Positions 11,991 to 14,841 of a stretch of DNA of 22,826 nt are shown one piece after another (the stretch's first letter is position 1; each line of letters starts with the position of its first letter). The notes under the pieces were generated by a model. That model was not told where the DNA came from and did not search any database. It worked only from the letters and a program-made list of their open reading frames with translations. Origin of the DNA: a virus. Lineage: Duplodnaviria > Heunggongvirae > Uroviricota > Caudoviricetes. The stretch lies in the IMG/VR virus record IMGVR_UViG_2724679293_000023, one strand, 5' to 3'. Both the position numbers and the translations under genes were made by a program.

Positions 11991-12737
11991 TCACTTCGCA
12001 ATTCCTGGCTGGACGACATTCGGACGCCAGCTCTCCCAGTTAAAATTCACCCATCGCCCGCCGTTCATGGTCATGCGATCCATAATCCGCTCGCCGAGCA
12101 ATGTTTTCATGGCCTCATAGTTCAGGTTTGTCAGCATCCCCACGCTGCGCATCGACGCTGTCCGGCGATCAACAATCTGGTGCAGCACCACCTGCTCGTT
12201 TTTCGTCTCGCGCTGAATGCCAATTTCATCAAGAACCAGCAGATCTACTTCGCACAGCTCCCGCAAAAATTTTTCGCCTGACTGCCCGTCGTCATAGCTG
12301 GCGTGCAGGGCGCTCATAACATCAGCCACGGTAACCACAATCACTGTCTGACCGTCTTTCAGCAGGCGATTCCCGATAGCTGCCGCTAAGTGATTCTTCC
12401 CGGTACCAGGTTTTCCGCTGAACGCAAAATTTGTACACCCGGTCATCAGTTCATCGGCGATGGATTTCGCCTGGCTTAACGCGTATCGCTGGCCGTCGTT
12501 CTGCACCTGGTAATTCGCAAACGAGCATTTACGGTGCAACGGCTGGATGCCTGAACGATTCAGAATTTTTTCCACCCGCAACTGGCGATTCAGGCGGTTG
12601 ATCTCCTCGCTACGTTTCTGGCCTTCAGCAAGTTGCCACTCGCGCCACTCCGCTACCGTTCTGAATGGGGCGGTTACATGTGGCGGGGTCAGTCGGCGGA
12701 TGCGTTCCAGAACGCCGCCTGTCGCAATATTTTTCAT
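11991..12737 (-). CDS. DnaC-like helicase loader (AAA+ ATPase), phage replication protein
   Basis: 248 aa; Walker [18 protein letters not shown], Walker [10 protein letters not shown] and overall similarity to E. coli DnaC / Rac YdaV as I recall them. Confidence 0.85.
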
Positions 12738-12743
12738 GGTCCG

Positions 12744-13532
12744 TTACCCCCTGAAGCCTGGCGGGATCGCACTGTCCGGCAACGAGACAGTGTTAACCTG
12801 TCGGAGCAACGTCTCAGGCCGAACACCTTTCGGCGCGAACAGGCCCTGGTATTCATTGGCGATGCTGTGTCGAATCACCTGCTCAGGTGTAAAACCCTGC
12901 TGACGGAATTTTTCCAGCTCCCGTATCGCCCCGTTAGCGCCCTGCTCCGTTCGAATCGGTTTTCGCAATGCCTGCCTGAACTTAACCCACTCATGCCAGA
13001 GTGTTTCCGGCAACCAGTCAGGCAGCTCGATAGCCTCCGGCTCGAATTTTTTAGACGCTCGTTTTTGGCGAGGGGGATTTAGGGGGAGATCAGTATTTAT
13101 ATCTTCCTCTTCCTCTTCCTCTGGTAACGCTTTTTGATCCGTTTGTGTAACGCTGCCAGCGTTACCTTTTCGTTTCAGTTCGCGTATTTTTGTAACTCGC
13201 TCGTTTGTAACCGCCCGTTTTTTAGAGCTTTTTCCGTTATGACGTTCAAAGTTAGGTAGAGAAAGCCCACCGTCATTTTCGACCAGCCATCCAACCTGAA
13301 TTAACGCATCAGCAAAACCAGCCATAAAAGTGATGCGGTCTATTGCACTTTTTGTAACGCCGCGAGCGTTACAATCTGCATTACCGTCTATCATTTGTTG
13401 ATCCGCCCATGCCCAGAAGCGAATAACCTTCCCTAATGCGGCATCTGGATCAATATTCAGAATCTCAGCAAGCCTGAATATTTCCGGCTTATCCGGCGTA
13501 ATAACCTCGAGCTTTATCCAGTTTGAAGCCAT
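12744..13532 (-). CDS. Replication initiation-associated protein (YdaU-like / O-like partner of the DnaC-like loader)
   Basis: 262 aa directly upstream of the DnaC-like gene; acidic interdomain linker PEEEEEEDINTD; gene body contains palindromic iteron-like sites. Confidence 0.55.
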   Translation of the reverse strand: MASNWIKLEVITPDKPEIFRLAEILNIDPDAALGKVIRFWAWADQQMIDGNADCNARGVTKSAIDRITFMAGFADALIQVGWLVENDGGLSLPNFERHNGKSSKKRAVTNERVTKIRELKRKGNAGSVTQTDQKALPEEEEEEDINTDLPLNPPRQKRASKKFEPEAIELPDWLPETLWHEWVKFRQALRKPIRTEQGANGAIRELEKFRQQGFTPEQVIRHSIANEYQGLFAPKGVRPETLLRQVNTVSLPDSAIPPGFRG

Positions 13533-13565
13533 TTGTTTTCACCTTGTAACGCTCGCAGCGTTACA
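13146..13565. repeat. Three copies of a palindromic motif TGTAACGC-N5-GCGTTACA (13146-13165, 13352-13374, 13545-13565), plus extra TGTAAC half-sites at about 13191-13212
   Basis: Read directly; arms are exact reverse complements in each copy with a 5-nt spacer; copies are about 200 bp apart, two inside the YdaU-like gene and one in the upstream intergenic region. Confidence 0.7.
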
Positions 13566-13609
13566 TTTAACTGATACCGAACAAAACAATCCGGCACGAT
13601 CAATTTCAA

Positions 13610-14032
13610 TCAATGCACTACGACAGAATCGCCGGGCGACCCACCACCGCTGAAATGTGCTTTCCGGTAAACGGCCTGGACTGCATCATCATGCGCATCA
13701 ATTGCCGTACTCAACGCTTCCTGCGCCGCCAGTAATGCACGGCGTTCCAGGGTATCGAAGATACGGAGTCGGTGACGCAGCTCGCGCGGAAGAATTGCCA
13801 GAACCGCAGGGATCAGTTTCTGAATTTTTTCCCTTTGCGCTTTCGTTTCACCTTTCAACCAACGGTGATAGATATTCTGCTGATTGTTCCAGTCCTTGCC
13901 TGGTACAAGGGGCAATTCGCCGCCCCCCTGGCGCAGATATTCTTCAGTAATTGCGTTAGCGACCCACGCCTGCCCTTTTTCGGCTGCCAGGGCCAACAAC
14001 ACTGATTCGATATGCTCATGCCTGATTTTCAT
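13610..14032 (-). CDS. ydaT: YdaT-like (CII-like) protein
   Basis: 140 aa MKIRHEHIESVLLALAAEKGQAWVANAITEEYLRQ... matches my recollection of Rac YdaT; ATGA overlap with the upstream Cro-like gene. Confidence 0.6.
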   Translation of the reverse strand: MKIRHEHIESVLLALAAEKGQAWVANAITEEYLRQGGGELPLVPGKDWNNQQNIYHRWLKGETKAQREKIQKLIPAVLAILPRELRHRLRIFDTLERRALLAAQEALSTAIDAHDDAVQAVYRKAHFSGGGSPGDSVVVH

Positions 14033-14271
14033 GAATCAACCGCTCCTATGCTGTTTTCGCTATGCTTACCGTCTGGGGGGAATACATCGTCAAGTCCACA
14101 ATGAGCGCCAAGCCGATTAAGGGTAGAAACAATTTTTCTGCACTCCTCTAGCCCAGGGGTACGAAAATTTGCTTCGTAATTTGCCAGTCGGCTTTGTATC
14201 CACCCTAACTGAACAGCGAGTTGTCTTTGAGACAACCCAAGCTGTTTTCGATATGTTGAAATTTTGTTCAT
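14029..14271 (-). CDS. Cro/YdaS-like HTH (XRE family) DNA-binding protein
   Basis: 80 aa with HTH LGLSQRQLAVQLGWIQSRLANYE; divergent from the repressor gene; SD GGAGG upstream. Confidence 0.7.
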   Translation of the reverse strand: MNKISTYRKQLGLSQRQLAVQLGWIQSRLANYEANFRTPGLEECRKIVSTLNRLGAHCGLDDVFPPDGKHSENSIGAVDS

Positions 14272-14295
14272 TGAAAACCTCCGATGACAATTTTA

Positions 14296-14356
14296 AACAC
14301 ACCTTGTGTTATATGGTCAAGCTGTTTTGTGTTTTATGTAAATCACGATTCGTGAT
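14296..14356. promoter_or_regulatory. Candidate operator region between the divergent cro-like and repressor genes (palindromes AACACA-CCT-TGTGTT at 14296-14310 and ATCACGA-T-TCGTGAT at 14342-14356)
   Basis: Two perfect 15-bp palindromes in the 96-bp divergent intergenic region; the second ends 12 nt before the repressor ATG. Confidence 0.5.
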
Positions 14357-14367
14357 ACAAGGATGCA

Positions 14368-14787
14368 ATGGAAAAAGAAAACGAAAAAATTGCCGCTAGT
14401 AGGCTCAATGACAAAATTGCAATGCGTCTTAAAGAGCGCAGGCAGAAGCTTGGTTTATCTCAAGGAAAACTTGCTGAAATCTGCGGATGGACGCAATCGC
14501 GTATAGGTAACTATGAGGCGGGCAGCAGAAATGTTGGAGTGCATGACGCTGTCGTATTGGGAAAGGCACTTGGCATATCTCCTCCTGAGCTCCTCTTTGG
14601 AGAACAGGAATCTTCTGAATTGTGGTTAAATGAATCCCAACGAAAACTTCTTGAGTTGTTTAACCAGCTACCGGGCTCAGAACAACAACGAATGATTGAG
14701 TTATTTGAAGTCCGGCTAAAAGAAATCGATGAGTATGTAGAAAAATATTTGAGAGGCAGGCTTAAAGATAATCCCCCACCGGAGTAA
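14368..14787 (+). CDS. Prophage repressor, XRE/DicA-like HTH protein without peptidase S24 domain
   Basis: 139 aa; HTH LGLSQGKLAEICGWTQSRIGNYE; C-terminal LLELFNQLPGSEQQRMIELFEVRLKEI resembles DicA as I recall it; no Ser-Lys autocleavage module. Confidence 0.75.
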   Translation: MEKENEKIAASRLNDKIAMRLKERRQKLGLSQGKLAEICGWTQSRIGNYEAGSRNVGVHDAVVLGKALGISPPELLFGEQESSELWLNESQRKLLELFNQLPGSEQQRMIELFEVRLKEIDEYVEKYLRGRLKDNPPPE

Positions 14788-14817: not shown

Positions 14818-14841
14818 AGCCCGCTATCAGCGGGCTTTTTT
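14818..14841 (+). terminator. Intrinsic terminator after the repressor gene
   Basis: 8-bp stem agcccgct/agcgggct with 3-nt loop followed by T5. Confidence 0.6.

Follow-up and report, generated by a model that had tools for sequence, protein, structure and literature searches.

That a replication origin can lie inside the gene for its own initiator is a classical idea. For iteron plasmids, initiator monomers occupy directly repeated iterons and dimers occupy the operator. The origin of the Escherichia coli K-12 Rac prophage, oriJ, is defined genetically and, to our knowledge, its site has not been mapped to sequence. In phage lambda (NC_001416), the central part of gene O contains ori: four iterons with dyad symmetry (TCCCTC-N6-GAGGGA) and, beyond them, an A-rich polypurine run. 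Here, we describe a similar arrangement in a 22,826-nt stretch of DNA from a member of the Caudoviricetes (IMG/VR record IMGVR_UViG_2724679293_000023). This whole stretch, referred to as the window, is an E. coli Rac-like prophage. Its replication genes contain palindromes in and just upstream of an initiator gene. We consider it probable that these palindromes are binding sites for the prophage's own initiator. Together with an adjacent polypurine stretch, they would form a lambda-style origin inside the initiator gene. The same layout, with sites that change correspondingly, is found again in hundreds of phages.

Three palindromes in and upstream of the initiator gene

The initiator gene occupies positions 12744–13532 on the minus strand. 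It encodes 262 amino acids, predicted to form an N-terminal winged-helix-like domain, a disordered linker and a C-terminal DnaT-like domain. The motif TGTAACGC-N5-GCGTTACA was matched three times in the window: at 13146–13166 (site 1, with one mismatch, the final base being C), 13353–13373 (site 2) and 13545–13565 (site 3). No further match was found in the 22.8-kb window, even with up to three mismatches. The chance expectation, determined by shuffling, was 0.13 and none of 100 shuffles gave three matches. The original prediction for this DNA described three exact copies. This is correct for the arms of the 19-bp core, GTAACGC-N5-GCGTTAC, which are identical throughout, but not for the 5-nt spacers, which all differ (TGCCA, CGCGA and TCGCA on the window strand for sites 1, 2 and 3). 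The copies are separated by 207 and 192 bp, in agreement with the proposed distance of about 200 bp. Hence, the palindromes are real but, with this spacing, they do not form a tandem array of iterons.

As first proposed, two copies are coding and one is intergenic; sites 1 and 2 fall within the open reading frame (ORF). Site 1, the proximal palindrome, covers codons 123–129 (GNAGSVT) in the disordered linker. Site 2, the distal palindrome, reads TGTAACGC-TCGCG-GCGTTACA on the gene strand and covers codons 54–60 (CNARGVT) in a loop of the N-terminal domain. Site 3 occupies part of the 77 bp that separate ydaT from the initiator gene and reads, on the gene strand, TGTAACGC-TGCGA-GCGTTACA. It ends 13 nt short of the initiator ATG and shares bases with the AAGGTG ribosome-binding site. 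The window has nine GTAACGC heptamers, seven of them within 13124–13564; one of the seven is a single half-site at 13124–13130 that the original prediction did not mention. The nearby TGTAAC half-sites mentioned in the original prediction were located at 13191 and 13206. Read on the gene strand these are two copies of GTTACA, 15 bp apart (13191–13211) and upstream of site 1; they are weaker matches of uncertain relevance. There is also a degenerate extra half-site, GGTAATGC on the gene strand (13378–13385), 12 bp upstream of site 2. Site 1 was flagged by one scan as an intrinsic terminator on the antisense strand. We judged this incidental because the T-run is Lys/Arg-rich coding sequence and the site belongs to a conserved cluster.

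Site 1 is the first element of a compact layout. On the gene strand the order is GGTAACGC-TGGCA-GCGTTAC (13166–13146), a 16-nt spacer, the half-site GCGTTACC, a polypurine tract, TATAAATACTGATC and CCCCC-TAAAT-CCCCC. The extra half-site (13124–13131) follows the 3′ arm of site 1 at a distance of 23 bp and is immediately adjacent to the tract. Together with site 1 it corresponds to codons 123–137, immediately ahead of the EEEEEED linker. This bears out the earlier remark that the first copy is beside the code for an acidic linker, with site 1 eight codons upstream of EEEEEED. The tract itself, CAGAGGAAGAGGAAGAGGAAGA (13102–13123, minus strand), encodes EEEEEED and is a local variant of a family-wide sequence, C[CT]AGAGAAGAGAAGAGAAGAGAAGA. 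Both the polypurine tract and TATAAATA adjoin the last half-site. Next comes the short AT-rich stretch TATAAATACTGATC (13088–13101, minus strand), where we infer that unwinding would start. The CCCCC-TAAAT-CCCCC element is downstream of the tract, at 13072–13086 on the minus strand. The least stable 30-mer in the replication genes maps to 13076–13105 (−33.6 kcal/mol, compared to a mean of −41.1 with a standard deviation of 3.3). The interval originally put forward, 13146–13565, does include the three palindromes, but the predicted functional core, 13072–13166, is at and beyond its lower end.

Conservation, co-variation and selection on the DNA

To find relatives, the N-terminal 137 amino acids of the initiator were compared with 50,697 phage records using tblastn. 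This identified 60 records with 26–96% identity, 14 of which were compared in detail, oriented by gene start. The palindrome GTAACGC-N5-GCGTTAC is present at +149 in TL-2011b, Klebsiella phi3.2, Xanthomonas Olaya and CP2, Ralstonia QkW1 and CBW1004C-Prop1. Several of these carry it at +358 as well. The N-domains of the phage homologues with this palindrome are 43–70% identical to that of the window. In more divergent homologues, a palindrome of another sequence takes these places: GTAGACG-N6-CGTCTAC in Raharianne (+154 and +370) and GTCAC...GTGAC, with the half-site GTCACA, in Vibrio 1.211.A (+149 and +358). The palindromes of phiPSA1 are TGTCCGC-N7-GCGGACA, at +65 and +365; epsilon15 is another phage of the GTCCGC class. 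Hence, the sites are kept in orthologous replication modules, in line with the origin proposal, and the loss of conservation that would have refuted the original prediction was not observed. Initiator homologues with the GTAACGC palindrome itself at the same gene positions occur in phages of E. coli, Klebsiella, Xanthomonas, Ralstonia and Pseudomonas, and also in genomes of Planctomycetota and Verrucomicrobia.

The polypurine tract is shared more widely than the half-sites. Between +300 and +480 of 15 genes, a phage-specific half-site cluster is followed by a near-identical C[CT]AGAGAAGAGAAGAGAAGAGAAGA, then by a few A/T base pairs and, often, C5-7-N4-6-C5-7. Exact copies of the 25-mer were found in IMG/VR (at least 120 contigs) and among species-representative genomes (likewise at least 120), although some of the genome matches are plain (GAGAA)n microsatellites unrelated to the module. 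The 25-mer is a mirror-repeat polypurine tract and could, as a consequence, be triplex-prone. The C5-7-N4-6-C5-7 elements, often with a G-run behind them, occur in K-12 Rac, PAN70, Raharianne, CBW1004C and many metagenomic loci. They are found 10–30 bp downstream of the tract, encode PLNPP or PPNPP, and could pair with the G-run. Their resemblance to the lambda iteron (TCCCCTAAAACGAGGGA) is superficial.

We used a DNA pattern scan for the tract to assemble 114 non-redundant viral loci. The half-site classes adjoining the near-identical 25-nt tract number at least seven: GTCCG (44 loci), GTAAC (26), GTCAC (16), GTAGA (3), CTAAC (3), GTCCC (2) and GCAAC (1). Upstream, between −700 and −85 from the tract, we searched for distal palindromes of the form core-N5-11-reverse-complement(core). 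Of 95 non-redundant viral loci, 74 have such a palindrome with the half-site that the locus itself uses, compared to 3 of 665 tests with the half-sites of other classes. Its position is also constrained: −220 to −285 from the tract for the GTAAC, GTCAC and GTAGA classes (with one GTCAC locus at −401) and −308 to −343 for the GTCCG class. Judged from sequence, site 2 is this family-wide distal palindrome. No second upstream copy was detected between −700 and −85 in the viral loci, and in 13 phage homologues outside the Rac group no copy precedes the gene. Site 3 is present in the window and its Rac-like relatives. Hence, site 3 looks particular to the Rac-like lineage.

Half-sites near the tract are phased. 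The last one abuts the tract, with a gap of −1 or 0, in 78 of 107 viral loci. Same-orientation half-sites are spaced by 11 bp (113 cases) or 12 bp (39 cases), and the most frequent order of orientations is > > < <. Inverted pairs are 14 bp apart, start to start, which is the geometry of the window palindrome. The N-domain family is encoded at 83 of 86 tract-bearing loci, and the window-type C-domain at 24 of the 86. Taken together, the conserved positions, the match between proximal and distal half-sites and the lambda-like anatomy support the suggestion of a candidate origin or initiator-binding array.

Rac-like initiators differ from TL-2011b by a 12-bp (4-codon) insertion next to site 2 (13374–13385). 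The insertion adds an in-phase half-site, which is a perfect GGTAACGC in Rac phage MN652886 and GGTAATGC in the window. The protein loop thus appears to have been lengthened in Rac-like initiators to add a DNA site.

Several observations separate constraint on the DNA from constraint on the protein. The DNA of site 1 is read as GNAGSVT in the window but as VTPTALQ or VTLAALQ in TL-2011b and Klebsiella phi3.2. Similarly, the 25-nt tract encodes REEKRRE in 70 loci, whereas in 16 it is read in another frame and gives [PL]EKRREEK. At 19 loci the peptide GNAxxV[TS] is encoded, in ORFs of 36–62% G+C. All 19 use GGT (background 27%), GTT (background 41%) and AAC (background 68%) as arm codons, while both spacer codons vary freely. 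For GGT the binomial P is about 1e-11, although such values for the arm codons are only indicative because the 19 loci are not phylogenetically independent. One Vibrio phage has a change of Asn to His (AAC to CAC) paired with a synonymous change of GTT to GTG, so that the dyad is restored. Finally, we examined 61 distinct close relatives; these are near-identical E. coli loci, suited to comparing arms with spacers and not to measuring co-variation. Among them, next to no variation is seen at the 48 positions that make up the arms of the three sites. Most changes fall in the spacers, with a maximum of 77% at position 3 of the site 1 spacer. We conclude from the two-frame tract, the reframed site 1 and the fixed synonymous arm codons that selection keeps the DNA, not the protein.

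A proposed mechanism and alternative explanations

The initiator matches phrog_2509, "replication initiation protein", across residues 1–262 of 262 (E 1.5e-89), a family whose name comes from annotation and not from experiment. Residues 77–236 also match phrog_678, "replication initiation O-like". No Pfam family was assigned to the initiator at E ≤ 0.01 and none was found for 13 N-domain homologues. Residues 170–262 (93 amino acids) have a weak match to the single-strand-binding domain of DnaT (2ru8, E 1e-4; also 9zbt), and several homologues are annotated "primosomal protein I". The protein had previously been labelled YdaU-like. Consistent with this, the C-terminal 124 amino acids (139–262) are 81% identical to K-12 YdaU, and the gene is followed by ydaV. 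However, BLASTP similarity is confined to that part. DUF1376 (PF07120) was not matched by the window initiator or the 13 homologues, even at E ≤ 1, and hhalign gave a probability of 0.1% for the N-domain profile against the K-12 YdaU N-terminus. Since similarity to K-12 YdaU starts at residue 139, the label is valid for the C-terminal half only. In an AF2 model of the initiator, built with database homologues, site 2 encodes a low-confidence loop (residues 49–60) between helices. Site 1 and the tract encode a disordered region (residues 97–160). Hence, as modelled, both intragenic sites sit in parts of the protein that can absorb a sequence imposed by the DNA.

Genetic context is consistent with the initiator as the binding protein. 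It is the sole gene common to all compared loci. Upstream neighbours include YdaT, methyltransferases, Roi, KilAC or unknown proteins, and downstream partners are DnaC-like, DnaB-like, P-like or missing. We propose that initiator dimers bind the palindromes and phased half-sites through the N-terminal domain. The origin core would be site 1 with the half-site at 13124–13131, abutting the polypurine/AT stretch in the linker-coding part of the gene. An initiator complex at these proximal sites would distort, then melt, the adjoining stretch. The DnaT-like C-domain could capture single strands, recruit the DnaC-like YdaV with host DnaB, or both; YdaV is the presumed partner of this domain. Site 2 would be an auxiliary site, probably cooperating via DNA looping. 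Site 3 probably serves as a third looping anchor or for autorepression of the replication genes.

A number of observations weigh against this scheme. The tract region has a G+C content of approximately 42–47% and so is not classically AT-rich. Proximal half-sites are few in the window, with three good ones compared to four full iterons in lambda. The predicted secondary structure of the N-domain (helix, helix, loop, helix-turn-helix, beta hairpin) is compatible with a winged helix, but a Foldseek search of the PDB with this domain returned nothing below E 1.4; the weak matches were mostly winged-helix proteins and do not count as evidence. The fold thus looks like a winged helix by secondary structure only. 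Half-site class agrees with that of the nearest N-domain neighbour in 71 of 94 loci, an imperfect correspondence obtained with a crude assignment of classes. As RNA, site 3 can also fold into a stable hairpin immediately 5′ of the ribosome-binding site. Lastly, only two plasmid records in PLSDB encode the N-domain, and no minimal replicon of the module was found among them. These phage-like and, for this question, uninformative records are CP088505.1 (E. coli, 52 kb) and NC_015459.1 (Pusillimonas sp. T7-7, 41 kb), both non-mobilizable. The latter, equal in length (41,205 bp) to IMG/VR contig 650716078_000002, looks like a circular phage or phage-plasmid.

The first alternative is that the palindromes are operators only. 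The initiator, or some other phage regulator, would repress or roadblock the replication operon, perhaps by looping, and the origin would be elsewhere. All three sites are indeed palindromes of the dimer type, the ribosome-binding site and 5′ end of the initiator gene are overlapped by site 3, and spacings of 192 and 207 bp suit looping. Furthermore, many plasmid initiators autoregulate via inverted repeats. We nevertheless regard this explanation as unlikely. Only site 3 is positioned as an operator would be, and homologues outside the Rac-like lineage lack it. The copies that are conserved belong to a phased cluster abutting a conserved polypurine tract of low stability, as at lambda ori. 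A promoter scan found no promoter-like site near any of the three copies. In any case, autoregulation and origin function are compatible with each other.

Alternatively, the sites might be bound by a protein unrelated to the initiator, such as the CII-like YdaT, a Cro-like protein, the repressor or a host factor. The recognition helices of the YdaT family are variable (PMC9986795), which leaves some room for this. We rejected YdaT itself as the binder. The characterised YdaT box, TTGATT-N6-AATCAA, has been footprinted (PMC9986795, PMC11879457); it differs from the palindrome in sequence, the palindrome has a 5-nt spacer, and a box of the YdaT type sits separately in the window. In addition, phages with the identical GTAACGC palindrome encode methylases, Roi, KilAC and hypothetical proteins nearby, but no YdaT. 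A host factor would leave unexplained both the phage-specific half-site classes and the occurrence of GTAACGC from Enterobacteria to Planctomycetota. Hence, binding by another protein is a distinctly unlikely explanation.

We also considered that the palindromes act as hairpins in mRNA, influencing stability, processing or translation, rather than as DNA sites. All three are transcribed and, among the close relatives, stems are invariant while loops vary. Within a structured leader (z = −2.9), site 3 would fold into a hairpin of 9 bp that stops 3 nt short of the ribosome-binding site. At the equivalent place in TL-2011b, just 5′ of its own ribosome-binding site, there is a hairpin unrelated to this one, TGCAC-N6-GTGCA. 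However, a purely structural hairpin has no need for the same arm sequence within a genome and across phyla. Single half-sites in direct orientation, every 11–12 bp, form no hairpin at all. Moreover, the imperfect copies that we inspected have C-C or G-G clashes and not G-U pairs. We therefore consider an exclusive role in RNA very unlikely, though such a role could co-exist at site 3.

Finally, the repeats could lack any function in cis and result from chance or from a repeated GNAxxVT peptide. In the window, sites 1 and 2 share a reading frame and their peptides are alike (GNAGSVT and CNARGVT); in the phage alignment G50 is invariant and N51 and A52 are common to all GTAAC-class homologues. 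This explanation can be dismissed: only 0.13 matches are expected by chance, site 3 is non-coding, the Vibrio phage change restores the dyad, and the idea is already contradicted by the shift of site 1 to another frame in TL-2011b and Klebsiella phi3.2 and by the fixed synonymous third positions.

Breadth of the module and comparison with known systems

The preferred reading, an origin recognised by its own initiator, has implications beyond this prophage. With the 1.7-kb replication region as query, which is 100% identical to NZ_CP074819, partial matches were obtained in 1628 of 5426 complete E. coli genomes and nearly full-length matches in 125. GTAACGC half-sites were also found beside the same 25-mer in Planctomycetota, Verrucomicrobiota, Acidobacteriota, Saccharibacteria and Proteobacteria. 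This breadth across phyla is, from the sequences compared, the unexpected part. In addition, a DNA element visibly shapes the sequence of the initiator itself. Tentatively, we suggest that the window may hold one member of a very widespread and apparently undescribed origin module. Such a module would be a gene for a Pfam-less origin-binding domain that carries its own sites, namely a palindrome in the loop and a phased half-site cluster in the linker. It would also include a near-invariant (GAGAA)4-5 element, conserved as DNA in two frames, and its hosts would range from Enterobacteria to Planctomycetota, Verrucomicrobiota, Acidobacteriota and Saccharibacteria. The (GAGAA)4-5 element might be a universal site of melting or single-strand capture, or a triplex-prone mirror repeat, and might serve as the joint at which specificity and helicase-recruitment modules are exchanged. 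We found no publication on these sites, the tract or the domain in a search that was thin on subscription journals, so an earlier description is possible.

The analysis yields a testable origin map for the Rac-like prophage lineage, with bases to mutate and a protein domain to purify. It also proposes a function for a large family of "hypothetical" phage proteins. For uncultivated phages it offers a rule for finding origins: cognate half-sites beside a (GAGAA)n tract, inside the initiator gene. More generally, the locus is a clear example of a cis-acting DNA element that dictates the amino-acid sequence of its presumed binding protein.

The genes around the initiator are as follows. Directly downstream is the gene for the DnaC-like helicase loader YdaV (11991–12737, minus strand; NF009043 match, 1.7e-153). 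Upstream are genes for the YdaT/CII-like protein (13610–14032, minus strand), a Cro-like helix-turn-helix protein (14029–14271, minus strand) and a helix-turn-helix repressor (14368–14787, plus strand). The sequence CTGATTTTCATGAATCAA at 14022–14039 is a YdaT box with one mismatch that takes in the start codon of ydaT. In K-12 Rac, the box footprinted with YdaT has the same placement (PMC11879457). In the divergent-promoter region that separates the genes for the Cro-like protein and the repressor (14272–14367) are the direct repeats TTGTGTTATATG and TTGTGTTTTATG (14304, 14327) and a palindrome, ATCACGAATCGTGAT, at about 14342–14356. A further sequence, CAAGCTGTTTT, is repeated at 14238 and 14318. 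The repeats of 14272–14367 are presumably immunity operators unrelated to the GTAACGC sites. The palindromes do not resemble them, as expected from the earlier distinction between the two sets. Approximately 30 nt past the repressor stop codon, AGCCCGCTATCAGCGGGCT followed by TTTTTTG (14818–14836, plus strand) forms a clean hairpin like that of an intrinsic terminator. The leader RNA between ydaT and the initiator gene (13566–13609, minus strand) has two hairpins (z = −2.9), the first of which (AUUGAUC...GGUAUCAGU) is outside the set of palindromes.

How, then, does the locus compare with systems already described? E. coli DnaT resembles the initiator in its C-terminal single-strand-binding domain, to which residues 170–262 are weakly matched. 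However, DnaT lacks a domain for sequence-specific binding to an origin, and its role is in PriA-dependent restart. In iteron plasmids such as pSC101, F, P1 and RK2, a single initiator acts at the origin and, as a dimer on an inverted repeat close to the start of its gene, autoregulates; this is by analogy a plausible model for site 3. Plasmid Rep protein has also been found to bind the unwinding element on one strand (PMC4081077), to which the conserved polypurine strand may be a parallel. The plasmids differ in that every strong site here is palindromic, and the protein families are not the same.

The K-12 Rac prophage has the same gene order: repressor, Cro-like, YdaT, initiator, YdaV and YdaW. 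It also has repeats of its own upstream of the linker, followed by a purine-rich/AT stretch and C7-TAAAT-C7. The repeats in ydaU (NC_000913.3, excerpt 2512–2651) are TGTTCAAACA at 2512 and 2545 and TGTTTGAACA at 2568. In contrast, its N-domain (DUF1376) is unrelated, the repeats have another sequence and there are no GTAACGC palindromes. The K-12 C7-TAAAT-C7 continues as GGGGG, and identity to the window starts exactly at that joint. This comparison of sequences supports the view that the two initiators are module swaps joined at the linker and tract. The repeat region of K-12 ydaU is, similarly, a plausible candidate for oriJ.

The lambda origin shares most of the anatomy. In both cases the origin, predicted in the window, is embedded in the initiator gene where an interdomain linker is encoded. 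Dyad-symmetric sites of 18–21 bp for initiator dimers precede a purine-rich, easily melted stretch, which for the window is a prediction by analogy. Both proteins are modular, with an N-terminal half specific for the origin and an exchangeable C-terminal half matched to the helicase-loading partner, and the order of genes is cII-like, initiator, loader. The differences are in the detail. Lambda has four tandem iterons 20–24 bp apart, whereas the window has one palindrome with phased half-sites and extra palindromes 207 and 399 bp upstream of site 1. Similarly, the A-rich run of lambda is replaced by a (GAGGAA)n or (GAGAA)n tract, and lambda P by a DnaC-like AAA+ loader. Between the initiator and lambda O no protein similarity was detectable (BLASTP E 1.5). 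Hence, with a shared anatomy but no detectable relationship between the proteins, we classify the locus by its predicted mode of action, as a lambda-type origin, and place its initiator outside the O family.

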